DNA from: Deltaproteobacteria bacterium
Lineage (GTDB): Bacteria; Myxococcota; Kuafuiibacteriia; Kuafuiibacteriales; Kuafuiibacteriaceae
Assembly (NCBI GenBank): GCA_040218735.1
Contig: JAVJQW010000003.1
Coordinates: 1 to 64,000, forward strand
Direction of reading: 5' to 3'
DNA length: 64,000 nucleotides
Numbering within the stretch: position 1 is the stretch's first letter; each line of letters opens with the position of its first letter. The translations under genes were made by a program, and so were the position numbers. The notes beneath the pieces were generated by a model. It saw nothing but the letters and a program-made list of their open reading frames with translations, did not search any database and was not told where the DNA came from. Below are positions 5,601-19,573 of the stretch, piece after piece.

Positions 5601-6052
5601 GTCCCTTCGTAACCTCCCTCGGATTCGACGCCGCACCCGGTGTGGCAACCGTAGCAGCGCGGCGTGTCGACGCCGACGACGTTGCGGTCCGCGTCGACGC
5701 GCTGCCAGCGCCAGTCGAGCGCGGCCGGCGCCGTCCCGTCGGCGAGGCGGGTCATCACCGTCCACTGCTTGATCGCGCCCGAGCAGTCCGTGTCCGTGAA
5801 GTCGTACTCCTCCTTGAGCACCACCGCCCCGACCGGGAACGGCGCGTCGCGGTTTTGGTACGGGGAGAGCGCGACCGGATCGGCGAGCATGCGGACGTAG
5901 TTCAGGTCGTGGTCGCCGCTCGTCCGGCAGTCGCGGACCTCGACGTAGGTCGCCGCGTAGTCCGCCGGGAAGTCCGGCGCGGGACCGTCGTCGTCTCCCG
6001 TGCCGTTGCACGCGGCGAGGCACAGGAGCGTGAAGAGCGCTCGACGCATCAT
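5585..6052 (-). CDS. Cytochrome P460 family lipoprotein
   Basis: Lipobox LAAC; FPVGAVVLKE (Lys at the cross-link position), WTVM..., DWRW and a C-terminal CYGCH heme motif, the typical P460/c'-beta layout. Confidence 0.75.
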   Translation of the reverse strand: MMRRALFTLLCLAACNGTGDDDGPAPDFPADYAATYVEVRDCRTSGDHDLNYVRMLADPVALSPYQNRDAPFPVGAVVLKEEYDFTDTDCSGAIKQWTVMTRLADGTAPAALDWRWQRVDADRNVVGVDTPRCYGCHTGCGVESEGGYEGTCAHP

Positions 6053-7329
6053 CTCAACCGAAGCGCTCGTATCACATGGTTGCCCGTGTCGGCGATGTAG
6101 AGCACGCCGTCCGCGTAGGAGAGCCCGTACGGGATCTTCAGCAGCGCATCGAGCGCGGCCACGCCGTCGCCTTCGTCCCCCTTCTCTCCGCACTGCCCCG
6201 CGACGCGATCGATCGTGCCGTTCGGCGCGATCTTCCGGACGCAGTGGTTGTAGACGTCCGAGAAGTAGAGCGTGCCGTCGTCGCCGAACACGAGGTCGAC
6301 GGGGGCGTTGAGGAGCGCGTCCGTCGCCGGTCCGCCGTCGCCCGCGTAACCCTGCTGCGCGACGCCGTCGACCGGCGCCTGGCCCGCGATGCGGTGGACG
6401 ACGCCGTCGGTGTCGATCATGCGGATGATGTTGTTCGAGGTGTCGGCGAAGTACAGGTTGCCGGCGTCGTCGAAGACGATTCGCCCGGCCGGGATCGCCG
6501 ACTGCCCGAACGGTTGCGCCATCCGCATCTCCATGGCCGGCCCTTCGTCGCCGCTGTACGCGGGGGTGCAAGGCAGCTTGCAAGACTCCACGGGATCTCC
6601 GCAGACGAACTTCCCCGACGGGCGCCCCGCGGCGTCGTCCGGGCACTGCACGGGGGTCTCACACGGCCCGGGGCCTCCGGGCGGCGGGTTGTCGACGATG
6701 CACTGGCCGGCGATCCGCTCGATGGTCCCGTCGGCGTTGATCCGGCGGAGGACCTGGTTCGCTTCGTCCATGATCACGAGGCGCCCCATCGGATCGAGCG
6801 CGATGCTCGCGGGGAGATCGAGCGAGGAGGTCAGCGCGGCCTCGCCGTCGCCGAAGTACGCGCGTTTGCCGTCGCCGCCCATGTCTTCCACTTCGCGCGT
6901 CGCGAGATCGATCGTGCGGATCTTGCTGTTGTGCCACGCGGCGATGATCAGCTTGTTACCCGTCGCGTCGAAGATCATGTTCGGCGGGTGGTTGAAGTCG
7001 TTGTTCGCCGGGTCGTCGAGCGTGCCGCCGAGCTCACCGCGGCCCGCGACCCACTTCAGCAGACCGTCGGAGTCGAGGTGCCGGATGCGGTGGTTGTTCC
7101 AGTCCGGGATGTACAGCGTGCCGTCCGGCGCGGGGAGTGAGTCCTGCGGCAGGCTCATGCGCGCTTCGAGCGCGGGGATGTCGCGGTCGTCGGCGCCCGT
7201 GTCGTAGCCGTTCTCGCCGTTGCCGGCGATCGTGCAGATGTTCCCGACGATGCTCCGATCGCAGGGCTCGGGCTCGTCTTCGCCGCTGCACGCGAACAAC
7301 GGGAGCGCGATCCAGATCCAACGCTTCAT
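6049..7329 (-). CDS. NHL-repeat beta-propeller lipoprotein with Cys-rich insert
   Basis: Lipobox LFAC; NHL repeats; insert containing six Cys. Confidence 0.85.
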   Translation of the reverse strand: MKRWIWIALPLFACSGEDEPEPCDRSIVGNICTIAGNGENGYDTGADDRDIPALEARMSLPQDSLPAPDGTLYIPDWNNHRIRHLDSDGLLKWVAGRGELGGTLDDPANNDFNHPPNMIFDATGNKLIIAAWHNSKIRTIDLATREVEDMGGDGKRAYFGDGEAALTSSLDLPASIALDPMGRLVIMDEANQVLRRINADGTIERIAGQCIVDNPPPGGPGPCETPVQCPDDAAGRPSGKFVCGDPVESCKLPCTPAYSGDEGPAMEMRMAQPFGQSAIPAGRIVFDDAGNLYFADTSNNIIRMIDTDGVVHRIAGQAPVDGVAQQGYAGDGGPATDALLNAPVDLVFGDDGTLYFSDVYNHCVRKIAPNGTIDRVAGQCGEKGDEGDGVAALDALLKIPYGLSYADGVLYIADTGNHVIRALRLR

Positions 7330-8498
7330 CGCATCACCTTTACGATTCGATTGTTGAGGGAGTCCATGACGTAGAGGTCACCGGCGGGGTCGAACGCGAT
7401 CCCGAACGGCCGGCGCAAGTGCGTCGCCTCCGCGGCGAGCTGCTCCTCCTCGTCGAGGCCGAGCTCCCCGGTGCCGACGACGGTGCGGATCGTGTCGTCG
7501 TCGAGATCGATCGCGCGCACCGCGCCGTTGTCGGTGTCGGCGAAGTACAGGTCGCCGTCGGGGCCGATCTCCAAGTCGCGCGGTCCGGAGAGCATCGCGT
7601 CGGCCGCGGGCCCGCCGTCGCCGCCGAAGCCCTTGTCGCCGGTGCCCGCGAACGTCGCGACGGTGTCGGCGTCGAGGTCCATCACGCGGATGCGGTTGCC
7701 GATGGTGTCGGCGATGTAGAGCTTGCGCTCGTGGTAGACGAGGCAGCCGCTCGGGTTCGGGTTGGAGCCGCGCTCCCAATTGAACTGCGCTTCGAGCGCC
7801 GGGCCGTCTGCGAAGCCGGGCTCACCGGTGCCCGCGATGGTGTCGATCATCCCGTCGGTGTCGATCATGCGGATGCGTTGGTTCTGCTGGTCGAGGATGT
7901 AGAGGTTGCCGGCCTCGTCGTACGTGGCGTCGTTCGGTTGGATGAAGCGCGCCCCCGTCGCCGGGCCGCCGTCGCCCGCGAAGCCCGCCCCGGCGCCGGC
8001 GATGACGGTGACGAAGCCCGTGTCGGAGTCGACCTCGAGGATCTTGTGGTTGTGCCACGCGACGAGGACGACGTTGCCGTTGGGGTGCATCAGCAGGTTC
8101 GTCGGGTGATTGAGCTGCCAGTCGTCGCCCGGCCCGCCGCCGGGCGGGATGCCGCCGAGCGGCCCGTCGCCCGGGAACACCGGGTCGGTCCAACCCACGA
8201 CGCTCTGCACCGTCTGATCCGGGAGGATCTTGCGGACGAGGTAGTTGTTGAAGTCGGTCAGCCACATCGTCCCGTCCGGGTGGAACAACAGGTCCTGCAC
8301 CTGGTTGAACTGTGTCTGCCAGCGCGGCTTGCCGTCGCCGTTGAACCCTTCGAAACCCTTGAGCCCCGCCCAGGTGCACGCGGTGCCGGCGGTCTGGCCG
8401 ATGCACGCGTCGACGGGCTCGGCGGTGTCGTCGTCATCGCCGCTGCACGCGCTACATACGAGCAGCGCCGCGCCCAGCAGGCTTCCCCAACCTTTCAT
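7326..8498 (-). CDS. NHL-repeat beta-propeller lipoprotein
   Basis: ATG at 8498, lipobox CSAC, NHL/GDGGPA repeats; close paralog of 9594-10736. Confidence 0.85.
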   Translation of the reverse strand: MKGWGSLLGAALLVCSACSGDDDDTAEPVDACIGQTAGTACTWAGLKGFEGFNGDGKPRWQTQFNQVQDLLFHPDGTMWLTDFNNYLVRKILPDQTVQSVVGWTDPVFPGDGPLGGIPPGGGPGDDWQLNHPTNLLMHPNGNVVLVAWHNHKILEVDSDTGFVTVIAGAGAGFAGDGGPATGARFIQPNDATYDEAGNLYILDQQNQRIRMIDTDGMIDTIAGTGEPGFADGPALEAQFNWERGSNPNPSGCLVYHERKLYIADTIGNRIRVMDLDADTVATFAGTGDKGFGGDGGPAADAMLSGPRDLEIGPDGDLYFADTDNGAVRAIDLDDDTIRTVVGTGELGLDEEEQLAAEATHLRRPFGIAFDPAGDLYVMDSLNNRIVKVMR

Positions 8499-9523
8499 CA
8501 CAAACCTCCGGCGGGCACGTCGCGCGCGCCCTTGTAGATCATCACGCCGTTCACCAACGGCAGCGCGGCCGTGCGGCCGCCGACGGACCACACGCCGCCT
8601 TCGTCGTCCATCCACACCGCGTGCAGGTTCTCGGCGGTGAGCACGGTGGGCTCTTCGTGCCAGCCACCGGCGTCACGTCGGAACACCGACCCGAACTGCC
8701 CGACCGTGTAACCCACCTCGTTGGCGCCGAGCACGACGCCCGAGAGGCCGCTGATCACGGAAGGCGGGGTCACGTCCTGCCAAGTGTTACCGTCGTACTC
8801 GACGATCACGCCGCTCCCGAGCCCGCCGACCGCGGCGTAACGCCCGCCGCGTCCGTGCACGGTGAACAGCGATCCTCCGACGCCGGTCTGGCCTTCGGTG
8901 AGCGTCGTCCCGTTCCACTGAAACGAAACCGATCCGCTCCCGACCAACCACACGTCGTCGGCGCGCGTACCGAACACCTTCCACACCGCCGCGGTGCTCG
9001 CGGTCTCGACGGGGAGCGAGGGCTCCGGCGTCCAGGTGTTCGAGCCGTCGTTGCGCCACGCGAAGCCTCCGCGCGTGCCCAGCTCGCCGCCGACGGCCCA
9101 CACGTCGGTCGGGCTCGAGCCCCACAGCCCGAACACCGTCGCGGCGGAGGGGGTGTCCATCGTCGTGAACGTGCCGCCGTCGTACTTCAGGATGCGGCCG
9201 CCGGTGCCCCCCATGAAGATGGGCCCGCCTTCGAAGCCGAAGACCCACCACAGGTCGCCCCCGTCGACACCGGTCGGGACGCGGGACCAGGACGCGCCGT
9301 CGTAGTGCACGACGAGCGGCCCCGTCCCGTCGCGAAGGTCGCCCCCGACGGCCCAGACGTCGTCCGGTCCGGCCCCCCATACCGACAACAGGGCCGCCGG
9401 GAGCTCTGAATCGATCAAGCGCCACTCGACGGTCGTCGCGTCGTCGTCGTCGGCCCCGTCGTCGCCGTTGCAGGCGGCGGTCAGGAGCGCGAGGGATGCG
9501 GCTGCGACGAGGACGCGAGACAT
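8498..9523 (-). CDS. Beta-propeller lipoprotein (VWG..xxDVWAVG repeats)
   Basis: ATG at 9523, lipobox TAAC; repeated L..VWG.GP.DVWAVG...YDG..W blades. Confidence 0.8.
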   Translation of the reverse strand: MSRVLVAAASLALLTAACNGDDGADDDDATTVEWRLIDSELPAALLSVWGAGPDDVWAVGGDLRDGTGPLVVHYDGASWSRVPTGVDGGDLWWVFGFEGGPIFMGGTGGRILKYDGGTFTTMDTPSAATVFGLWGSSPTDVWAVGGELGTRGGFAWRNDGSNTWTPEPSLPVETASTAAVWKVFGTRADDVWLVGSGSVSFQWNGTTLTEGQTGVGGSLFTVHGRGGRYAAVGGLGSGVIVEYDGNTWQDVTPPSVISGLSGVVLGANEVGYTVGQFGSVFRRDAGGWHEEPTVLTAENLHAVWMDDEGGVWSVGGRTAALPLVNGVMIYKGARDVPAGGL

Positions 9524-9593
9524 GCGGCACCCCTTGAACCCGCGACCGGGCTTCGGGGGCAGAACTTTTGTCTCGGTGGTAGCTTGAGTCGTC

Positions 9594-10736
9594 ATGAGGG
9601 CTCGATGGGTGCTCTGTGCGGTCGCGCTGACGGCCTGCGGCGAGGACGCGGACCCCTGCGTCGATGCCGAGCCGGGCACGGTGTGCACCTGGCTGGGGCT
9701 GCCCGGCGAGGCGGGGTTCAACGGGGACGGCCTCCCGCGTTGGGAGACCCAAGTGAACGAGGTCCAGGACCTCGTGTTCCTCGCGGACGGCACCGCCCTC
9801 TATAGTGACCTCAACAACCACCTGGTGCGAAGGGTTACGACCGACGGACGGGTCGAGACCGTCGTCGGCTGGACCGACCCGGTGTTCCCGGGCGACGGGC
9901 CGCTCGGCGGGATCCCCGCGGGCGGCGCGGCCGGGACCGACTGGCAGCTCACCCACCCGACCGCGCTGCTCTTGCGCGACGACGGCACCGTGCTGCTCGC
10001 GGCGTGGCACAACTACAAGGTCCTCCGGATCGATCCGACCGGTCGCGTCGAGGTGGTCGCGGGCGGCGACGTGGGGTTCGAGGGCGACGGCGGGCCGGCG
10101 ACGGACGCACGGTTCGCACGTCCCAACGACCTCGCCTACGACGCGGAGGGGCGACTGTTCGTGGTCGACCAGCAGAACGAACGTCTGCGGCGCATCGATC
10201 CCGACGGGACGATCACGACGGTCGCGGGGGACGGGACGTTCGGCTCCACGGGCGACGGCGGCCCCGCGGCCGACGCGACGCTGTCGTGGGCGGACTCGTC
10301 GAGCCCCAACCCGAGCGGCAACGTCGAGATCGTAGACGGGTCGCTGTACGTCGCGGACACCGAGGCCCACCGCATCCGTCGCATCGATCTGGCGACGGGG
10401 ATCATCGAGGCGTTCGCCGGCACCGGCGAGGGCGGGTTCGCGGGGGACGGCGGCCCGGCGATCGATTCCAAGCTGCGCGGGCCCCGCGACATGGAGCTCG
10501 GCCCCGACGGCGACCTGTACTTCGCCGACACCGACAACGGCGCGGTGCGTGCGATCGATCTCTCGAGTGGAACGATCCGCACCGTCGTCGGCACCGGCGA
10601 GCTGGGGCGCGACGAGGACGGGCGCGACGCGACCGCGTCGAGGTTGGGCCGGGCGTTCGGGATCGCGTTCGACGCGGCGGGTGCGCTCTACGTGATGGAC
10701 AGCGTCGGGCAGCGCATCGTGAAGGTCACGCGCTGA
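9594..10736 (+). CDS. NHL-repeat beta-propeller lipoprotein
   Basis: Lipobox LTAC; NHL repeats; divergently oriented paralog of 7326-8498. Confidence 0.85.
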   Translation: MRARWVLCAVALTACGEDADPCVDAEPGTVCTWLGLPGEAGFNGDGLPRWETQVNEVQDLVFLADGTALYSDLNNHLVRRVTTDGRVETVVGWTDPVFPGDGPLGGIPAGGAAGTDWQLTHPTALLLRDDGTVLLAAWHNYKVLRIDPTGRVEVVAGGDVGFEGDGGPATDARFARPNDLAYDAEGRLFVVDQQNERLRRIDPDGTITTVAGDGTFGSTGDGGPAADATLSWADSSSPNPSGNVEIVDGSLYVADTEAHRIRRIDLATGIIEAFAGTGEGGFAGDGGPAIDSKLRGPRDMELGPDGDLYFADTDNGAVRAIDLSSGTIRTVVGTGELGRDEDGRDATASRLGRAFGIAFDAAGALYVMDSVGQRIVKVTR

Positions 10737-11969: not shown

Positions 11970-12159
11970 ACGTGGATCCGGGGGCCTCGTTCCTGATGAC
12001 CGTGCTCTAACGAGCTAATTTCATTGGGATCTCGATCGAGGGGGCGGGCCGAGGCGGCGTCCGGGTCGATCGTGTGCAGCGAAATTCAGTGCCGCAACGC
12101 GAGCGGTGCACCGCTTCGGGAGTGCACACGATCGACCCCGCTGGACCCCGCCAAATCGC

Positions 12160-12175
12160 TGGCACGGCGGGTGCT
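12160..12175 (+). promoter_or_regulatory. sigma54 (-24/-12)-like promoter
   Basis: TGGCACGGCGGGTGCT, about 40 nt upstream of ATG 12218, with RBS AAGGAGA in between. Confidence 0.7.
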
Positions 12176-12217
12176 CTAGGTCCCCCCGGAACCGAAACCA
12201 CCCAAGGAGATTTTGAG

Positions 12218-13156
12218 ATGACCATCGTCAACAACAACCGCGCGTCCGACTTCCAGTTCGAAACCTTCAGCGACCTCGTGGGCGCCGGCGAGTACGGCGG
12301 CGGCCTGTCGGCTTCGCTCCGCCGCAAGTTCGGGAACCTTCCGCCCGAGCTGATGATCCTCCTCATGCGCATCCTCGAGGACGGCCAGATCAACGGCGGC
12401 CCCGATGGCGACGACACCAAGGACATCGCGAAGCTCAAGAAGGAAGCGTGCATCAGCACCTCCGAGCTCCACCAGATCAACTCCGCGTTCCAGGGTTTCT
12501 TGTCGAACTGGTCCACGGGCCACGGGAGCGTCGAGGCGTACATGTCGATCCTCGGCCTCGACGAGCTGCAGGACGAGACCCTCAAGTCCCAGATCGCGCA
12601 GATGCTGATGGACGGCTACGTCACCAGCGACGAGGCGATGAAGCTCGCGGAGCTCGGCGTCATCGACAAGGCCGACGCGGACGCGTTCGCGGAGTCCGCG
12701 AACTGGGTGATGGCCGACGGCAACAAGCCGACCAGCAGCCTGAGCCGGGAAGCCAAGGAGTACATGTTCGGCATCGGGATCACCGGCCAGTACTCGTTCG
12801 GCGACACGATGCTGATGCTGATGCTGCTCATGATGCAGCTCTTCCAGAAGCGCATCGAGGACATGTCCAGCGCCGTCGCGGAAGCGCAGCTGAAGGCCGA
12901 CGTCTCCGCCGCGAAGTACCGCGCGCTCCTCGCGAACGCGCCGGCCGACCGCGAGAGCGACGACTACGCGGCGTGGTCGCGGGAGAAGGAAGCGCTCAAG
13001 ATGGACATGGACCACGACGACGACGAGGTCCAGCAGCTCATGGCCGAGCTCAAGCGCGTCATGGACAAGTACGACACGCTCGAGAAGATGTTCCAGGGCA
13101 TCCTCGACCAGATCGGCGCGAGCGAGCGCGCCATGGCCCAGAAGATGGATTCCTAA
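12218..13156 (+). CDS. Met-rich helical hypothetical protein, possible secretion-system filament/translocator-like
   Basis: Strong RBS AAGGAGA; almost all codons end in G/C; no Sec signal; hydrophobic TMLMLMLLMMQLF segment and a C-terminal coiled coil. Confidence 0.75.
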   Translation: MTIVNNNRASDFQFETFSDLVGAGEYGGGLSASLRRKFGNLPPELMILLMRILEDGQINGGPDGDDTKDIAKLKKEACISTSELHQINSAFQGFLSNWSTGHGSVEAYMSILGLDELQDETLKSQIAQMLMDGYVTSDEAMKLAELGVIDKADADAFAESANWVMADGNKPTSSLSREAKEYMFGIGITGQYSFGDTMLMLMLLMMQLFQKRIEDMSSAVAEAQLKADVSAAKYRALLANAPADRESDDYAAWSREKEALKMDMDHDDDEVQQLMAELKRVMDKYDTLEKMFQGILDQIGASERAMAQKMDS

Positions 13157-13194: not shown

Positions 13195-13539
13195 ATGATC
13201 GGCCAGAACCTACAGAAGAAACTCCCCGAAGACCTCCAGGGCGCCGTCGGGCAGTACATGGAGCAGGCCACCGACGACAGCATCGACGAGGTCGCGGTCG
13301 AGATCGCCCAGCAGGCGACCGGCTTCATCGACCGGGTCAACGAGACGCTGCAGCGTTACGAGTCATCGGACGGCACGGAGCGCGACGAGGCCCGTGCCGA
13401 GCTCTTCGCTCGACTGCGGGACATCCGAAACTTCAAGGCCAACGCCCAGCAGGTCCTCGCGGTGATGCCCGACCTCAAGAAGCGCTGCGCGACGGTGCTC
13501 GCGAAGTCAGACCGCAAGCGGAAGCGCCCGGCGGCCTGA
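13195..13539 (+). CDS. Hypothetical helical protein
   Basis: GAGGAG RBS; follows the 12218 gene after a 38-nt gap. Confidence 0.7.
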   Translation: MIGQNLQKKLPEDLQGAVGQYMEQATDDSIDEVAVEIAQQATGFIDRVNETLQRYESSDGTERDEARAELFARLRDIRNFKANAQQVLAVMPDLKKRCATVLAKSDRKRKRPAA

Positions 13540-13607
13540 GCTCCTGGGCGCACCTCGCGATTCGGAAATCCGTCTGAATCCGGGGCATCGTGGTAAGTTC
13601 GCGCCCG

Positions 13608-15863
13608 ATGTACCTCGGGTTCGCGAACCCCACGCCGGAGGCGCCCGTGCCGTGCGGGCGCTACGAGCTGCTGGAGCGGATCGGCTACGGGGGCATGGCG
13701 GAGATCTTCCGCGCGCGGCTCGCCGGGCCCTCGGGGTTCAGCAAGACGGTCGTCATCAAGCGCATCCTCCCGCGGCTCGCGCACGACAACCTCGTCGTTC
13801 GGATGTTCGTGGAGGAGGCGAAGATCGCCGCCGCCGCGGATCACGACAACATCGCCACCGTGTTCGAGCTCGGCGTCGCCGACGACGGCAAGTTCTTCAT
13901 GGTGATGGAATACATTCAAGGGATCGACCTGGAGCTGCTCCTCGGCTCCGCGTCGAAGCGCTCCCTCCGCGTGCCGACCTGGTTCGCGGTCCACACCGTG
14001 TGTCAGGTGCTCGAAGCGCTCTCCTACGTCCACGGCCTCACCGACGAGGAGGGCAACCCGCGCAACGTCATCCACCGCGACGCCACGCCCTCGAACATCT
14101 TCATCTCGCAGCTGGGGCAGGTGAAGCTGTCGGACTTCGGCGTCGCGGACTACGAAGGCAAGTCGCCGACGACGCAGGCCGGGCAGCTCAAGGGCAAGCT
14201 CGCGTACATGTCGCCCGAGCAGCTCAACAACAAGCCGCTCGACCAGCGCGCGGACCTGTTCACGATCGGGGTCGTGCTGTGGGAGGCGCTGACGCACCGG
14301 CGCCTGTTCGGCTCCCTCTCCGAGGTGCAGGCGATGCTCGCGATCTGCGATCCGGAGCGGCGCCGCGCGCCGTCGGACGTGGCGACGGATCTGCCGAAGG
14401 CGCTCGACGAGATCGTTCTGAAGGCCCTCGCCGTCGACCGCGACGAACGTTACGCGACCGCGGAGGACTTCCAGTCGGACCTCCTCGCGGTGCTCCACGA
14501 CCTCCACGGTCCGGTGCGGCGCCGGGACGTTCGGGACGTCGTCGCGGTGGTCACCGGACGTCAGGCGCCGAGCGCCGACACCACCGGCTCGATGGCGGCG
14601 CTGTCGATCGTCGACACGGACTCCGCGTTCTTGGAGGTCCCGGAGGAGCGCAGCGAGAGCCAGGACATCCCGCGTGAGGACTTCGACGAGTTGATCACGG
14701 GGTCCGAGGCGACCATCGATCACACCCAACAACCCGGCGCGCTCCGGATCGGCACCGACGACATCGCGGGCGTGCAGGCGATGGTCGACTACGGACCGGT
14801 CGACTACTCGTCGGACCCGATGGACCAGACGCTGCGCGACGAGCACTACGTGACGTCGCCGATCGCGCCGACGCCCACGATCGTCCCGGACGACCCGCCG
14901 CCCGTGCCGCAGGGCGACACGGATCCGTACGCGGGGCCCTACGCGTTCTTCACGCGCCGCGCCGGCGAGGCCTCGGAGGGCCCGCTCGACTTCTCCGCCG
15001 CGCACCGCCGCCTCGCGGACGCCGCGGAGGTCGGGCGCACGATCTCCATCTCCGCCGACGATCGCTACTGGATCGAAGCCTCGGAGTACGCCGAGCTGAC
15101 CGGGCAGGATCTCCTCGCCGAGCTCGGCGCGCCGCCGACCAACGTGACCGTCGTCGGGTCCGCGGCGCAGCGACGCATCCCGACGCTCCTCGCGGTGCTC
15201 GCACGCGACCGCTCCACGGGGACCCTCTCCGTCGCCAAGGCCGACCTCACCGAAGAGCTCTGGTACGAGCTGCTGATCGCCGACGGGAAACCGACGCGCG
15301 TGCGGACGAACGTGCCGTCGATGCAGCTCCCGAACGTGCTCGTGGACGGCGGGTGGGTCTCCGCCGACGCGATGCCGCGGTTGCTCCACACCGTGGTGGA
15401 GGATCGTCAGGCGCTGGATCGCATCGCGCGCAACGACGGTTTCGCGACGCCTTCGCCACTCGACGTGATGCGCGCGCGCTCGACCGCGATGTTCCAGTGG
15501 AGCGAGGCGGACTACACGTTCAACGCGGACCCGACGCTCCATTACGGCGCTCCCGTGGCCGGCTCGGTGCTCGCGTTACTGCCGACCCTCGTCAAACATT
15601 CGCTGACCGGCGCTCAGATCTTGGAGCGACTGATGCCGCGCATCGACACCGAGCACGAGCCGTCGTGGCGCTTCGCCGAGGCCGTCGAGGAGATGCAGCT
15701 CGACACCGCGGACCGCGACGCCGCCGAGTGCTTCGCGGTCGCGCAGACGCTCCGCAAGGCGATCGAAGGACGCATCCACGAGCGCGAGCGCATGATGGCG
15801 ATGGCGCTGCTGCTGATCGAAGCGGACCTGTTGATCGAAGTCCCGTCGCGTCTGCGAACCTGA
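13608..15863 (+). CDS. Ser/Thr protein kinase, cytoplasmic, with C-terminal DUF4388-like region
   Basis: IGYGGMAEIF, VVIKR, HRDATPSN, DFG, YMSPE; C-terminal STGTLSV..ELLIADGKP; no TM helix. Confidence 0.9.
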   Translation: MYLGFANPTPEAPVPCGRYELLERIGYGGMAEIFRARLAGPSGFSKTVVIKRILPRLAHDNLVVRMFVEEAKIAAAADHDNIATVFELGVADDGKFFMVMEYIQGIDLELLLGSASKRSLRVPTWFAVHTVCQVLEALSYVHGLTDEEGNPRNVIHRDATPSNIFISQLGQVKLSDFGVADYEGKSPTTQAGQLKGKLAYMSPEQLNNKPLDQRADLFTIGVVLWEALTHRRLFGSLSEVQAMLAICDPERRRAPSDVATDLPKALDEIVLKALAVDRDERYATAEDFQSDLLAVLHDLHGPVRRRDVRDVVAVVTGRQAPSADTTGSMAALSIVDTDSAFLEVPEERSESQDIPREDFDELITGSEATIDHTQQPGALRIGTDDIAGVQAMVDYGPVDYSSDPMDQTLRDEHYVTSPIAPTPTIVPDDPPPVPQGDTDPYAGPYAFFTRRAGEASEGPLDFSAAHRRLADAAEVGRTISISADDRYWIEASEYAELTGQDLLAELGAPPTNVTVVGSAAQRRIPTLLAVLARDRSTGTLSVAKADLTEELWYELLIADGKPTRVRTNVPSMQLPNVLVDGGWVSADAMPRLLHTVVEDRQALDRIARNDGFATPSPLDVMRARSTAMFQWSEADYTFNADPTLHYGAPVAGSVLALLPTLVKHSLTGAQILERLMPRIDTEHEPSWRFAEAVEEMQLDTADRDAAECFAVAQTLRKAIEGRIHERERMMAMALLLIEADLLIEVPSRLRT

Positions 15864-15958: not shown

Positions 15959-17461
15959 ATGGTGAAGCCTGCCGCACCCGCTCGCCCCGCTCCGAAGCCC
16001 GTGAAGCGCGCGCCCGCACGGCGGCCGGCGGGTAAGAAGCTCGGCGCCAAGCGACCGGCGAAGCCGCTCGCGAAGAAGAAGCCGACCTCCAAGAAACCGA
16101 CCGCCAAGAGGACGGCCGCGAAGAAGCCGGGCGTCGACAAAAACACCAACAAACAGTCCATTCAAAAGAACACGCCGGCGCGTCCGGCGCGCGATAAACG
16201 TGACCCGCACCTCGGGGCTGCGCCCGGGGTGTTGCAGGGGCCCGCCGCGCATGCGGCGCGCGGGGAGCTGTCGCCCCGGCCGTACGCGAAGCTGACGGCG
16301 GATCAGCTCAGCGGGCCGGACGACCTGCGGCTCGACAAGGTGCACCGGCAGGCCACGACGAAGAACGTCGAGATGACGCGAAAGCTCGCGAAGACCCTCG
16401 ACGAAGCGGGCGTCGAGGGCGCGCACGTGTACGGCCGCGCGAAGGACAAGGTGTCGCTGTTCAACAAACTCCGCGAGACGCCGGGGATGAAGCTCGGCGA
16501 CGTGAAGGACGTGTCGGGCGTGCGCGCCGACATCACGCCGACCAAACCTGCGTTCGGCGACGTGAAGCAGGCGCAGAAGGCCGTGACCGAGACGTTCGGC
16601 GACGCTGCGAAGCTCAAGGGTGACTACATCACCAACCCGAACAAGTGGGGGTACACGGGTCGCATCCACGACATCGTCGACAACGGCGGGATGCCGCACG
16701 AGGTGCAGCTCGGGTCGAAGGACATCTCGAAGTTCATCGACCAGAAGCTCACCACGAAGGGCGGCCACCAGATCTCGCTGCACGACACGACGTTCTACAA
16801 GGGCGACACCAACGGGGCGCGCCTGCCGCAGCACCTGGAGAAGGAGTACACGTCGCTGATGGGTCGCATCCGCGACGCCAACGCTGCGGGCAAGTCGGCC
16901 GACGAAGTCCCCGAGCTCGCGCGCGACCTGAAGAAGTTCAAGGACGCCGCGGAGGAGGCGCTGCCTGCAAAGCTCCTCGCCAAACCGGATCCGAAGCTGT
17001 CCACGAAGGCGAAGGTCGGTCGCGCCGCGGGGAAGGTGCTCGGCGTGGCCGGCGTGGTCGGCGGCGCGATGCAGACCGCCGACGGCGTGCAGGAGCTCCG
17101 CGACGGGAAGTACGTCGAAGGCGGCGCGGACGTCGTCGCGGGGGGCGGCAGCATCGCGTCCTCCGCCGCGCTGATGGCGGGGCGCGTCGGCCTCGGAACC
17201 ACGACCGGCGGCGCGGTTGCGGTGGTCGACGGCGCGAAGGACATCTACGTCGGCATCCGCGACGGCAACGTCGAGAAGGGCGTCACCGGCGCGGTGAAGT
17301 CGGGGGCCGGCGCGGCGATGATCGCGGGCGTCGCCACCGCCAACCCCGTGCTCATCGCGGGCGGCGCGGTCGCGTACGGCGGCGCGGTCGTCTACGAGAA
17401 TCGAAAGGCCATCGCCGGCGCGGCGAAGAAGGCATGGAACTGGGTGAAGTCATGGTGGTGA
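15959..17461 (+). CDS. RelA/SpoT-family small alarmone synthetase-like domain protein with K/P/A-rich N-terminus and Gly-rich hydrophobic C-terminus (putative toxin/effector)
   Basis: GRAKDKVSLFNK, DVKDVSGVR, DYITNPNKWGYTGRIH and HEVQL match the synthetase motifs Syn1-4; the tail has several GxxxG hydrophobic helices. Confidence 0.8.
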   Translation: MVKPAAPARPAPKPVKRAPARRPAGKKLGAKRPAKPLAKKKPTSKKPTAKRTAAKKPGVDKNTNKQSIQKNTPARPARDKRDPHLGAAPGVLQGPAAHAARGELSPRPYAKLTADQLSGPDDLRLDKVHRQATTKNVEMTRKLAKTLDEAGVEGAHVYGRAKDKVSLFNKLRETPGMKLGDVKDVSGVRADITPTKPAFGDVKQAQKAVTETFGDAAKLKGDYITNPNKWGYTGRIHDIVDNGGMPHEVQLGSKDISKFIDQKLTTKGGHQISLHDTTFYKGDTNGARLPQHLEKEYTSLMGRIRDANAAGKSADEVPELARDLKKFKDAAEEALPAKLLAKPDPKLSTKAKVGRAAGKVLGVAGVVGGAMQTADGVQELRDGKYVEGGADVVAGGGSIASSAALMAGRVGLGTTTGGAVAVVDGAKDIYVGIRDGNVEKGVTGAVKSGAGAAMIAGVATANPVLIAGGAVAYGGAVVYENRKAIAGAAKKAWNWVKSWW

Positions 17462-18384
17462 AACTCGCGAAACCGTCCGACGTCGCCGGGTTCGTCGTCA
17501 CGGACCCGAAGGGCCGCACCGTGCACCGCGAGTCGTTCCCGTCCGGGCACCTCCCCGCGAACACGTTGGCCGCCCGAATGAACCGGCACGAAGCGAAGCT
17601 CGCGCGCACCTACGGCGCTGGGTTCTCGGTGGAGGCCGGGCTCTTCAACTCCGCGGCGGCGTTCGATCACTTCTTCCCACCGGAGAACACCACGCCGCTC
17701 GGTTCGCACGCGCTCCCGGATCCGACGCACATCCCCGTCGCGGCGCAGCTCGTACGCCGCGGCGTCCCCGCGCGCGTGGTGGCGTGGGTCGAAGCGGACC
17801 TGCGCGTGGAGGAGAACCGAACGCAGCTCATCGAGCAGGTCGCGAAACGCTTCGCGCCGCAACAGCGGGATCGAATCCTCTCCGCGCTGCGCCTCGCCGA
17901 GACCGCGCACGCCGGGCAGACGCAGATCGACCTGCCCGACGTGCCGTACACGAACCACGTCATCAACTGCGCGCGCCTCGTGTCGTCGTCGGGGGGATCG
18001 GCCGATGCGATCGCCGCGGCGCTGCTGCACGACGCCGTCGAGGACTCCGACGTCACGCCCGATCAGATCGAAGACCTGTGCGGGAGCGCCGTGGCCCGGA
18101 TCGTCGAGCGACTCACGCGGGGCACGGAGTCCCGCGCGGCGTACCTCGAGCACTGCCAGCACCTGGAGGGCGACGCGCTCCTGGTGAAGGGCGCCGACCG
18201 GGTGCACAACCTCCTGCGCAGCTTCACGCGTGAGGACACCGACGCGGCCTTCGCGTACCTCGACGAGACCCGCCGAACGTTCGACGCGCTCTTCGCGAAC
18301 CGCGCCGAGCTCGCGGCGCTGCGACCGCTCTACGCCGAGCTCGCCGCGGCGCTCACTGCAGCAACCAAACCACCAGCCCGATGA
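17452..18384 (+). CDS. HD-domain small alarmone hydrolase (SpoT/MESH1-like) with extra N-terminal domain; putative antitoxin/immunity protein
   Basis: AETAHAGQ, PYTNHV, AAALLHDAVED, VKGADRVHNL; start overlaps the end of the synthetase gene by 10 nt. Confidence 0.85.
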   Translation: MVVKLAKPSDVAGFVVTDPKGRTVHRESFPSGHLPANTLAARMNRHEAKLARTYGAGFSVEAGLFNSAAAFDHFFPPENTTPLGSHALPDPTHIPVAAQLVRRGVPARVVAWVEADLRVEENRTQLIEQVAKRFAPQQRDRILSALRLAETAHAGQTQIDLPDVPYTNHVINCARLVSSSGGSADAIAAALLHDAVEDSDVTPDQIEDLCGSAVARIVERLTRGTESRAAYLEHCQHLEGDALLVKGADRVHNLLRSFTREDTDAAFAYLDETRRTFDALFANRAELAALRPLYAELAAALTAATKPPAR

Positions 18385-19573
18385 TCGCGAGCGCCAACCC
18401 GCCCCACACCCAGGGCGTGGTGTTCGACTTCTGCAGCGCCGGCGGCAGCGCCGAGACCTCCAGCTCCGGCTCGACGTGCGGCTCCGGGATCCTCTCGGGC
18501 ACGACGTGCCCGGCCGACTCGGTCGCGAGCTCGTCGTACGGCGCGTCCATGACTTGGACGTCGGGCGGGACCGACATCTCGTTGTCGGCGTCGGTCAGCG
18601 TCGCCGACTCGTGGTCGACCAGCGTCGGCACCGCGCTGTCCTCGATCGAAGGGCCCGCCAACAACGCCGTGCGCAGCGCGACCGCGAACTCCGTCACGGA
18701 CGCGTAGCGATCGTCCGCGTTGATCGACATCGCGCGGTGCAGCACCTCGTCGACGGCCGGTGAGAGGTCCGGACGGTACGGCAGGACGCTCGGCCGCGGG
18801 CCGCGCGCGATTCGTTTCAGTACCGCGACGTGGGAGTTGTTCTCGCCGCCGGAGATCGCGATGTGGAAGGGGTGCGGATCACCCTCGGCGTCGACCGCCC
18901 ACGCGCGCCTCAACGCGATGAGCTCGAACATGATCGTCGCGATGGAGAAGATGTCCGCCCGGTGGTCGAGCTTCTTGCTGAGCACCTGCTCCGGCGAGAT
19001 GTACAGCACCGAACCGAGGACCCGCCCCGCCGTCGTGGGATCGATCTGACTCCCCACGAGCATCTTCGCGATGCCGAAGTCGAGCACCTTCAACATCGGG
19101 GGCTCGCCGCGCCGATTCACCATCACGTTCTTCGGCTTCATGTCGCGGTGGACGACGTCGTTGTCGTGCGCGAACTGGACGGCTTCGCAGAGGCGATCAC
19201 ACAGCCACGCCACACCCTGCGCGGGGACGGGCACACCCTCCGATGCGTTGTTGGCGAAGCGGACGTCGAGCGTCTCGCCGTCGATGAACTCCATCGCGAG
19301 GTACGCGATGTCGCCTTCGCCGCTCCACGCGATCGGGGCGGCGATGCCAGGGTGCGCGAGCTTCTCGAGGATGTGCGCCTCCTGCTTGAAGCGCCCGAGC
19401 ATCTTCTCGTTCGTGCGGTAGCGATCGTAGAGCACCTTCACCGCGACGGGGGCTTGGTCCTGGTGGTGATCGAGGCCGCGCCAGACCGCGCCGAACGCAC
19501 CCTTACCGAGCGGCTTCACCAGCTCGAAGCGATCGTCGATGTAGTCGCCGGGGAAGAGGTGCCCGTCGGCCAT
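18353..19573 (-). CDS. Ser/Thr protein kinase with C-terminal membrane anchor
   Basis: LGKGAFGAVW, VAVK, HRDMKPKN, DFG, YISPE; terminal TM helix. Confidence 0.9.
   Translation of the reverse strand: MADGHLFPGDYIDDRFELVKPLGKGAFGAVWRGLDHHQDQAPVAVKVLYDRYRTNEKMLGRFKQEAHILEKLAHPGIAAPIAWSGEGDIAYLAMEFIDGETLDVRFANNASEGVPVPAQGVAWLCDRLCEAVQFAHDNDVVHRDMKPKNVMVNRRGEPPMLKVLDFGIAKMLVGSQIDPTTAGRVLGSVLYISPEQVLSKKLDHRADIFSIATIMFELIALRRAWAVDAEGDPHPFHIAISGGENNSHVAVLKRIARGPRPSVLPYRPDLSPAVDEVLHRAMSINADDRYASVTEFAVALRTALLAGPSIEDSAVPTLVDHESATLTDADNEMSVPPDVQVMDAPYDELATESAGHVVPERIPEPHVEPELEVSALPPALQKSNTTPWVWGGLALAIIGLVVWLLQ

Follow-up and report, generated by a model that had tools for sequence, protein, structure and literature searches.

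Two overlapping genes, referred to here as gene 1 and gene 2, lie between positions 15,959 and 18,384 of the window, by which we mean the whole 64,000-nucleotide stretch analysed (positions 1 to 64,000 of contig JAVJQW010000003.1, assembly GCA_040218735.1, from a marine myxobacterium). Gene 1 encodes a protein with a RelA/SpoT homolog (RSH) synthetase domain and gene 2 a protein with a small alarmone hydrolase (SAH) domain. We propose, with a probability of about 0.65, that they constitute a toxin-neutraliser pair of the kind represented by the toxic small alarmone synthetases (toxSAS; SAS, small alarmone synthetase) and the exported alarmone synthetases (EAS). The following features were recognized, all on the forward strand (+):

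15959..17461 (+), gene 1: 500 residues, comprising a disordered N-terminus, a toxSAS-like RSH synthetase domain and a Gly/Ala-rich helical tail
15959..16240 (+), gene 1 residues 1–94: K/P/A/R-rich disordered region, net charge +25
16280..16963 (+), gene 1 residues ~108–335: candidate pyrophosphokinase (RSH synthetase) toxin domain, recognized by its motifs, an AlphaFold2 model and Foldseek
16994..17458 (+), gene 1 residues 346–500: helical Gly/Ala/Val-rich tail of 155 residues
17288..17398 (+), gene 1 residues 444–480: tail core, G.VK.GAG.AM.AGVATANPVLIAGGA..Y.GA, a putative membrane hairpin
17452..17461 (+), overlap of the gene 2 start with the gene 1 stop: ATGGTGGTGA, 10 nucleotides
17452..18384 (+), gene 2: 310 residues, comprising a partner domain, a linker and a MESH1-type SAH hydrolase
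17479..17694 (+), gene 2 residues 10–81: conserved partner domain, expected from the complex model to contact β1 and the ATP-donor site of gene 1, with a conserved AF.HF motif (F71, H73, F74)
17884..18306 (+), gene 2 residues 145–285: HD_4 domain of a small alarmone hydrolase; the H..HD..ED..D residues for metal binding and catalysis are in place

The ATG at 15959 is backed as the start of gene 1 by orthologs which likewise begin MV.PA. Were the GTG at 17458 the start of gene 2, the overlap would be reduced to 4 nucleotides; in one homologous locus (L016) the partner gene overlaps the toxin gene by the identical 10 nucleotides. Codon usage is host-like in both genes, with GC contents at third codon positions of 0.91 (gene 1) and 0.90 (gene 2).

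As the initial annotation held, the N-terminus of gene 1 is disordered and rich in Lys, Pro and Ala. Residues 1–94 contain 20% K, 18% A, 17% P and 10% R, and the AlphaFold2 confidence (predicted local distance difference test, pLDDT) is below 50 across most of them. The region is not conserved within the family, other members being Ser/Thr/Asn-rich there or lacking it altogether, and Pfam gave solely a sub-threshold match to HC2 (20.6 bits, cut-off 40). No hydrophobic segment (Kyte-Doolittle hydropathy over 19 residues, KD19, above 1.2) occurs before residue 353, so that gene 1 lacks a Sec-type signal, as had been stated at the outset. Nor does gene 1 contain a listed export Pfam domain at E <= 1, which agrees with the earlier remark that no marker of the Rhs, PAAR, VgrG or LXG type is visible.

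The synthetase domain and its relatives

RSH synthetases are defined by catalytic and ATP-binding motifs of the form R.K...S...K, D..G.R, a GY..H loop, E.Q and H..YK. In gene 1 these read GRAKDKVSLFNK (R160, K162, S166, K170), DVSGVR (D184, R189), DYITNPNKWGYTGRIH, HEVQLGS (E248, Q250) and LHDTTFYKG (H275, D276, Y280, K281). Across 36 aligned family sequences R160, K162, S166, K170, D184, R189, Y232, H237, E248, Q250, H275 and K281 do not vary, and at least 90% of the sequences retain Y280. Two motifs had been singled out as deviating from those of the housekeeping enzymes, namely GYTGRIH (residues 231–237) and EVQLGS (residues 248–253). These deviations are real and family-wide, G231, Y232, G234, R235, H237, E248, Q250 and G252 being invariant in the same alignment, and both motifs are signatures of the family.

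The AlphaFold2 model has a pLDDT above 90 over about residues 105–340 and displays the nucleotidyltransferase-type α/β fold of Rel/SAS enzymes. Compared with the PDB by Foldseek it produced 21 matches at E <= 0.001, RSH synthetases throughout among the matches listed. The best were CapRel [6.2e-5, 7ztb] and RelP [7.1e-5, 6ewz], and the probability was 1.00 to each of CapRel, RelP, RelQ, RelSeq and RelA. The sequence-based call through Pfam RelA_SpoT (PF04607) is borderline for gene 1 (30.5 bits in the whole-genome scan; family members score 31–43 bits), so the identity of the domain is settled by its fold. The synthetase assignment of the initial annotation, which had named a missing nucleotidyltransferase fold as grounds for abandoning it, therefore stands.

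A word-indexed search with gene 1 returned 37 proteins at E <= 0.001 (39–81% identity), nearly all having the whole architecture in common. With the synthetase domain alone, exhaustive HMMER recovered 47 representatives among 1.84 billion at E <= 1e-3, and 20 of these were taken into a Pfam scan. Three of the 20 carry eCIS_core (DUF4157; P0045, P0048 and P0058), the name referring to extracellular contractile injection systems (eCIS), and two carry PAAR (P0047 and P0050). In all five the synthetase domain, 36–41% identical to that of gene 1, is located at the extreme C-terminus with 0–6 residues after it, stopping at the equivalent of about gene 1 residue 330; this is the layout of polymorphic toxins. 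PN.WGYTGR.H, E.Q.GS, LHD.TGYKG and a C-terminal helical extension are common to gene 1 and these domains. Judged from sequence, the nearest relatives of the synthetase domain beyond its own family appear to be the C-terminal toxin domains of PAAR/eCIS_core proteins.

A quick maximum-likelihood tree of 57 rows, from which rows over <= 165 query positions and 8 cluster members (mostly near-duplicates) were omitted, placed the four PAAR/eCIS rows used in a 9-row clade with a Shimodaira-Hasegawa-like approximate likelihood ratio (SH-aLRT) of 96. This clade forms a polytomy with two tail-bearing clades and lies far from a long RSH. Such sister sequences bear out the earlier description of the RSH-fold domain as toxin-type. 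The likeness of gene 1 to CapRel and FaRel2 is at the level of fold only, and the profile results discussed below do not show it to belong to any of the characterised toxSAS subfamilies (FaRel, FaRel2, PhRel, PhRel2, CapRel) or with Tas1/Apk1. Its family appears to be a separate synthetase subfamily, in which case the substrate is not readable from homology.

The family was found in 3 of the 20 genomes of the host's family and in 4 of the 401 sampled genomes of the phylum, one of these by a weak match of 29 bits, as well as in Granulosicoccus and Thiodiazotropha metagenome-assembled genomes (MAGs). The rarity of the pair in the host's family argues against a housekeeping role. The host genome also encodes a long RSH (contig C61) and a small RelA_SpoT-domain gene; the latter is at G000:C28:2086-2454 (G000 being the host genome), scores 60.8 bits and belongs to a 341-residue frame.

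EAS, of which a set of 1,369 has been described (Ahmad et al. 2025, PMC12691689), likewise have RSH synthetase domains joined to export modules, DUF4157 and PAAR among them as in the sister clade of gene 1. Gene 1, in contrast, has none of the export domains or signals listed in the available portion of that paper, and its own constant module is an undescribed one at the C-terminus. Apk1/Tas1 of the Apk1/Tas1-Tis1 system, a Pseudomonas aeruginosa type VI secretion effector, is also an RSH-fold toxin and is used between bacteria; an SAH (PaSAH/Aph1) can partly protect, according to the same portion of PMC12691689, and PAAR-linked relatives of the gene 1 domain exist. Unlike Apk1/Tas1, gene 1 is without PAAR or Rhs, no TssC was found in the host genome, and no Tas1 chain was matched at E <= 10.

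The partner domain and the fused hydrolase

The overlapping gene 2 had been described as a SpoT/MESH1-type HD hydrolase, and its C-terminal part proves to be one. It possesses an HD_4 domain (PF13328) scoring 60 bits (cut-off 27.2), and its best solved relative is human HDDC3/MESH1 [1.9e-14, 3nr1], with H..HD..ED..D aligned. The accompanying proposal, that gene 2 is an immunity gene, holds in so far as it is a tightly linked candidate neutraliser; what is conserved among the partners of gene 1 homologs, however, is the first ~80 residues of gene 2 and not the HD hydrolase. No Pfam family matches this partner domain at E <= 0.1.

A hidden Markov model (HMM) was built from five partners; that of the window was included in the model and not re-searched. 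It matches directly downstream of the gene 1 homolog in seven of eight distinct loci, and the linkage rests on these eight since a metagenome scan yielded two loci only. The seven are the window, G011, G008, L016, L010, L012 and L011, the last with two copies. In G008 the match (E 3e-5) is clipped by the contig end, and a fuller copy is present on a separate contig, C425. Linkage in other genomes, on which the initial annotation had made its case depend, is thus found. Leaving aside the weak 29-bit toxin match, the three toxin-bearing genomes of the 401 sampled from Myxococcota are also the only ones with the partner.

Outside the genus (L016, L010, L011 and L012) the partners are complete small open reading frames (ORFs) of 92–118 residues, none with an HD domain, and stand-alone partners in other lineages measure 85–118 residues. 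Fusion to HD_4 was detected in only three clusters (proteins of 170–543 residues, 5.8 billion clusters), all of them at least 80% identical to gene 2, which marks the fusion as genus-specific. The candidate binder is the ancestral partner, and the hydrolase has been fused to it in this genus.

Some loci are decayed. L011 has a broken toxin together with its two partner copies, and in L008 a decayed tail fragment is followed by a second copy of the small ORF. In L012 (650–1687, Granulosicoccus) the catalytic core, equivalent to residues ~142–302, has been lost in frame; N-terminal region, C-terminal helices and tail are still present, and a partner gene still lies downstream.

A complex of gene 1 residues 95–500 (36-row alignment) with gene 2 residues 1–85 (8-row alignment) was modelled in three runs alongside three controls. 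The ipSAE was 0.87 in all three runs and 0.01 in the best of the controls; in calibration, 58 of 80 solved complexes attained the ipSAE mark, as did 2 of 110 mismatched pairs, counts which hold only roughly here because custom alignments were used. Contacts agreed between runs to at least 61%, and the pLDDT of the partner was at least 80. In the model it is the synthetase domain, and not the tail, to which the partner binds. Contacts 157:66, 158:65 and 159:64 point to a partner strand that pairs with β1 in antiparallel fashion, and further contacts involve the long helix 129–144, residues 155–165, the basic helix (163, 165), R160, R189 and residue 191. The conserved AF.HF motif, which comes after the pairing strand and is present in partners from loci with an intact toxin, is also in contact in the model.

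According to the relevant part of PMC11782079, the antitoxin ATfaRel2 blocks the donor site of FaRel2 by extending the β-sheet at β1, and its YXXY motif lies in the ATP-donor site. The partner domain is predicted to bind β1 and the ATP-donor site of the gene 1 synthetase in a like manner. Here, as in FaRel2-ATfaRel2 (a Coprobacillus toxSAS; PDB 8PU3) and CapRel with its pZFD, an RSH synthetase toxin would be met by a small protein partner. With FaRel2-ATfaRel2 the predicted likeness extends to the antiparallel β1 extension, the contacts of the long N-terminal helix and the basic helix, and the covering of the ATP-donor site (PMC11782079, same part). An aromatic-x-x-aromatic motif follows the pairing strand in both, FDHF in gene 2 and YXXY in the published description of ATfaRel2. 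Unlike these systems, to which neither gene 1 nor its partner has detectable sequence similarity, gene 1 adds a disordered N-terminus and a 155-residue tail to what is found in FaRel2, and the partner is fused to an SAH hydrolase. FaRel of Cellulomonas marina, as far as the available descriptions go, is neutralised both by an SAH hydrolase (ATfaRel) and by a binding antitoxin domain (AT2faRel). There the two functions reside on separate proteins and the Tis1-like binder occupies the acceptor site, whereas gene 2 combines the candidate binder and the hydrolase in a single polypeptide, with binding predicted at the donor site.

The C-terminal tail

The Gly/Ala/Val-rich helices of about 150 residues noted at first, ending KKAWNWVKSWW, correspond to residues 346–500; they contain 20% A, 20% G and 15% V and are modelled as helical. 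The tail is the best conserved part of gene 1, being 95% identical to that of the same-genus ortholog versus 81% for the synthetase domain, and 57–76% versus 43–66% identical across the family. Twelve positions of its core are invariant across phyla (K447, G451, M454, G457, T460, A461, N462, P463, L465, G469, Y473 and G475), and residues 448–479, around the invariant Asn-Pro, form the sole stretch of the tail with transmembrane-like hydropathy (KD19 1.64). Modelled alone by AlphaFold2 (11-row alignment) the tail had a mean pLDDT of 51.6. Most likely it takes the enzyme to, or into, a membrane.

The tail is, moreover, a mobile module. One protein bearing it, P0039, is zincin-like, with an HEAGH motif and a Peptidase_Mx match that is weak (1.8e-3); others have no enzyme domain, namely P0086–P0088 and proteins from Burkholderiales, Armatimonadetes and Vulcanimicrobiota MAGs. 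Several of the non-enzymatic proteins have Ser-rich N-termini, two precede another conserved neighbour of ~205 residues, and G401 encodes a second, tail-only protein. LEA_4- or apolipoprotein-like amphipathic repeats were seen below cut-off (33.4 vs 51.1 bits) in tail-only relatives.

No Pfam family was found for the tail, either in the gene 1 scan or with 11 tails at E <= 5, where the matches (Moricin, ENOD93) were at chance level. The best ESM Atlas score was 0.89, below the lead threshold of 0.9, and the sole named row, a glycine-zipper cluster, scored 0.86. Membership of a Gly-zipper family was considered and rejected. GxxxG occurs 5 times against 5.9 expected and the (G,A,S)xxxGxxxG zipper pattern twice against 3.0 expected (2000 composition-preserving shuffles in each case), and no Pfam Gly-zipper family is matched; since GxxxG is not enriched over composition, "glycine zipper" describes a resemblance. 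The glycine-zipper modules of the Tde1 N-terminus, the TelE and EsxX C-termini and CdzC/D are, in the accounts available, also Gly/Ala-rich hydrophobic helical regions on antibacterial proteins, and that of Tde1 is needed for translocation into target cells. The tail of gene 1 differs from them in its much greater length and its invariant GVATANP core.

In L017 (5128–6660, 6891–7505 and 7738–8952) and L013 (7–933 and 986–1624) tail-only proteins with LKEPISEDMRLYVEAVR-like repeats adjoin the ~205-residue protein, for which Pfam has no family. The third protein of L017 has the common N-terminal motif ..EE.S.YQ.Y.N.TLG.I..LR.P. These two loci may represent a separate small system built around the tail.

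Mechanism, destination and surroundings

On the toxin-neutraliser reading gene 1 would be an ATP-dependent 3'-pyrophosphokinase. Its catalytic motifs are present, its toxicity we infer, and its product would be (p)ppApp/(p)ppGpp or 3'-pyrophosphorylated tRNA. The mobile 155-residue helical tail would bring the enzyme to or into the membrane. For gene 2, presumably coupled to gene 1 in translation, two modes of neutralising gene 1 are predicted. The N-terminal ~80 residues of gene 2 would strand-pair with β1 and cover the ATP (pyrophosphate-donor) site, including R160 and R189, and the MESH1-type hydrolase would strip the 3'-pyrophosphate from product which escaped. As to substrate, the available part of PMC11782079 associates a donor-site block with tRNA-pyrophosphorylating toxSAS and an acceptor-site block with makers of (pp)pApp, so that the predicted donor-site block, if right, favours tRNA as the target; the proximity to long-RSH synthetases points in the opposite direction. 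We put nucleotide and tRNA at even odds. SAHs are reported to reverse alarmones and tRNA pyrophosphorylation alike (bioRxiv 10.1101/2021.04.30.441581, in the portion available), and the fused hydrolase thus fits either substrate.

Several results weigh against this reading. The Pfam RelA_SpoT match on residues 159–255 of gene 1 scores 27.0 bits, exactly the gathering cut-off of 27. Against the PDB the family profile is nearest to long-RSH synthetase domains [9s6k, 6.1e-16; RelA, 1.8e-11], and among the 24 chains at E <= 10 there is no Tas1/Apk1, FaRel2, CapRel or SaEAS chain, none being 6OX6, 8PU3, 7ZTB or 8VX3. Similarly, the partner profile found no solved antitoxin, neither pZFD nor ATfaRel2, in the PDB at E <= 10, and two near-identical 93-residue ORFs at the partner position in L008 escape the partner HMM. 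Besides its approximate calibration, the complex score may partly reflect the model's memory of FaRel2:ATfaRel2 or of CapRel folds, since FaRel2:ATfaRel2 is a solved structure. Two further points also bear on delivery to other cells: none of the remaining 398 genomes sampled in the phylum yielded an orphan partner gene, and no secretion genes adjoin the pair in the window or in any other locus, nor is a secretion marker present in the protein.

One might, alternatively, regard the two genes as a non-toxic regulatory pair, a membrane-localised small alarmone synthetase with a hydrolase, tuning (p)ppGpp locally. The profile proximity to long-RSH (p)ppGpp synthetase domains, the joint encoding of synthetase and hydrolase, and the two flanking Ser/Thr kinases, whose synteny is kept within the genus, would all be natural on such an explanation. 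We nevertheless consider it improbable. The pair is rare, a long RSH and a second SAS are encoded elsewhere in the genome, the partner lacks a hydrolase in the five loci outside the genus where a partner was detected, the signature motifs are those of the PAAR/eCIS toxin domains, and toxins require just such a tight inhibitor as is predicted at the ATP site.

Where a toxin of this kind would act is a more difficult question. The initial annotation favoured a delivered interbacterial or predation effector, for which we see somewhat less than an even chance. It supposes Sec-independent export, for example by a type-III-like or unrecognised route, a tail which inserts in the target membrane, and gene 2 as immunity. 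That the sister sequences of the synthetase domain are PAAR and eCIS polymorphic-toxin domains argues for it, as do the mobility of the tail (on zincin-like P0039 and on non-enzymatic proteins of several phyla) and the N-termini, which differ between family members and are polar or Ser-rich, disordered and devoid of a signal peptide. The broken toxin with two partners in L011, the deleted core with retained partner in L012 and the decayed tail with a second small ORF in L008 are immunity-like arrangements. The membrane-active motif of Tde1, which aids translocation of that effector according to the available part of PMC10240207, provides a precedent.

An export route is less readily named. The EAS-type determinants given in the available part of PMC12691689 (Sec signal, LXG, XopAD, MuF, DUF4157, Rhs/PAAR) were not found in gene 1, and VipB/TssC gave no match in the host genome (96.5% complete), G011, G401 or G402, and one match in G008. 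FHIPEP, the SctV/FlhA-type export gate, has seven matches in the host genome, six of full length (contigs C23, C59, C41, C70, C38 and C9) and one partial (C16), an unusually large type-III-like export set for one genome. Several occur also in the relatives G011 and G008, and SctV and SctC genes lie side by side in G401, the genome containing L010. These seven matches make a type-III-like route conceivable; nothing ties such systems to gene 1, and SctC was not found above the curated cut-off in the host genome. Tail-only proteins, furthermore, occur in phyla in which type III systems are not generally expected. Finally, the modelled partner binds the enzyme and not the hydrophobic tail, and the neutralisation predicted here is of the type used by toxin-antitoxin and defence systems.

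A membrane-tethered toxin acting inside its producer fits the data about as well as delivery, and we regard action there as possible, at odds well short of even. The pair would then be an intracellular toxin-antitoxin or abortive-infection/dormancy module, in which the tail would hold the enzyme at the inner membrane of the producer and the partner would keep it inactive until released by a trigger such as phage or envelope stress. Its bicistronic organization with overlapping reading frames, the strict co-occurrence of toxin and partner, and a predicted donor-site neutralisation equal to that of the ATfaRel2 and CapRel pZFD antitoxins (PMC11782079, in the part concerned) are consistent with this, and the top Foldseek match of gene 1 is CapRel. 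The PADLOC candidate-defence model PDC-S33 matches at 1.7e-10, a model on which nothing relevant was found in the literature, and the LEA_4-/apolipoprotein-like repeats of the tail-only relatives, although below cut-off, hint at cytoplasmic membrane-associated proteins. Toxins of toxin-antitoxin systems are usually compact. Disordered N-termini of 90–130 residues with a 155-residue tail are without stated precedent in the available portions of the toxSAS toxin-antitoxin literature, the duplicated partners and decayed toxins resemble polymorphic-toxin loci, and the nearest sequence relatives are delivered toxins.

More speculatively, the tail with its GVATANP core might be a new portable C-terminal module for delivery or membrane translocation, taking cargoes as varied as an RSH toxin, a zincin-like domain and non-enzymatic regions out of the producer and through a target membrane with no known polymorphic-toxin trafficking domain, in these myxobacteria perhaps by way of one of their many needle-less type-III-like export systems. 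We think this unlikely; if it were true, gene 1 would become a candidate effector of such a system. Knowing whether the tail serves in anchoring, export or translocation would tell how toxins that lack a recognised trafficking domain arrive at their targets.

The toxic RelA/SpoT enzymes (Tas1/Apk1, toxSAS, CapRel and the exported alarmone synthetases) are a young field, and the synthetase subfamily, the tail module and the binder-hydrolase fusion are undescribed features. The module of genes 1 and 2 would add to the field a subfamily common to PAAR/eCIS toxins and stand-alone proteins, a family of small inhibitors with a predicted ATfaRel2-type donor-site block despite having no detectable sequence similarity, and a single polypeptide joining an inhibitor with a product-erasing hydrolase. 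Should the association of donor-site block with tRNA substrates, as set out in part of PMC11782079, hold, the pair would test this rule outside the classical toxin-antitoxin systems.

The window belongs to contig C46 of an 11.6-Mb genome and has a GC content of 69–72% throughout; the stretch occurs in metagenome runs from sponge, aquaculture and biofloc. The genes around the pair include Ser/Thr kinases, NHL-repeat proteins and the pentose-phosphate genes zwf-opcA-gnd:

13590–15863 (+), Ser/Thr protein kinase with DUF4388, flanking the pair
18353–19573 (-), Ser/Thr protein kinase, flanking the pair; this arrangement of kinases is kept in a same-genus relative
6049–10736, three NHL/teneurin-type β-propeller repeat proteins, clustered upstream

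Two genes at 12074–13156 (+) and 13195–13539 (+), encoding proteins of 360 and 114 residues with no Pfam family, have a local GC content of 0.65 versus about 0.70. They are 45% and 58% identical to their same-genus orthologs versus 78–88% for flanking genes, and thus appear to be a fast-evolving gene pair. In the same-genus relative about 2.3 kb of extra DNA is situated between them and the kinase.

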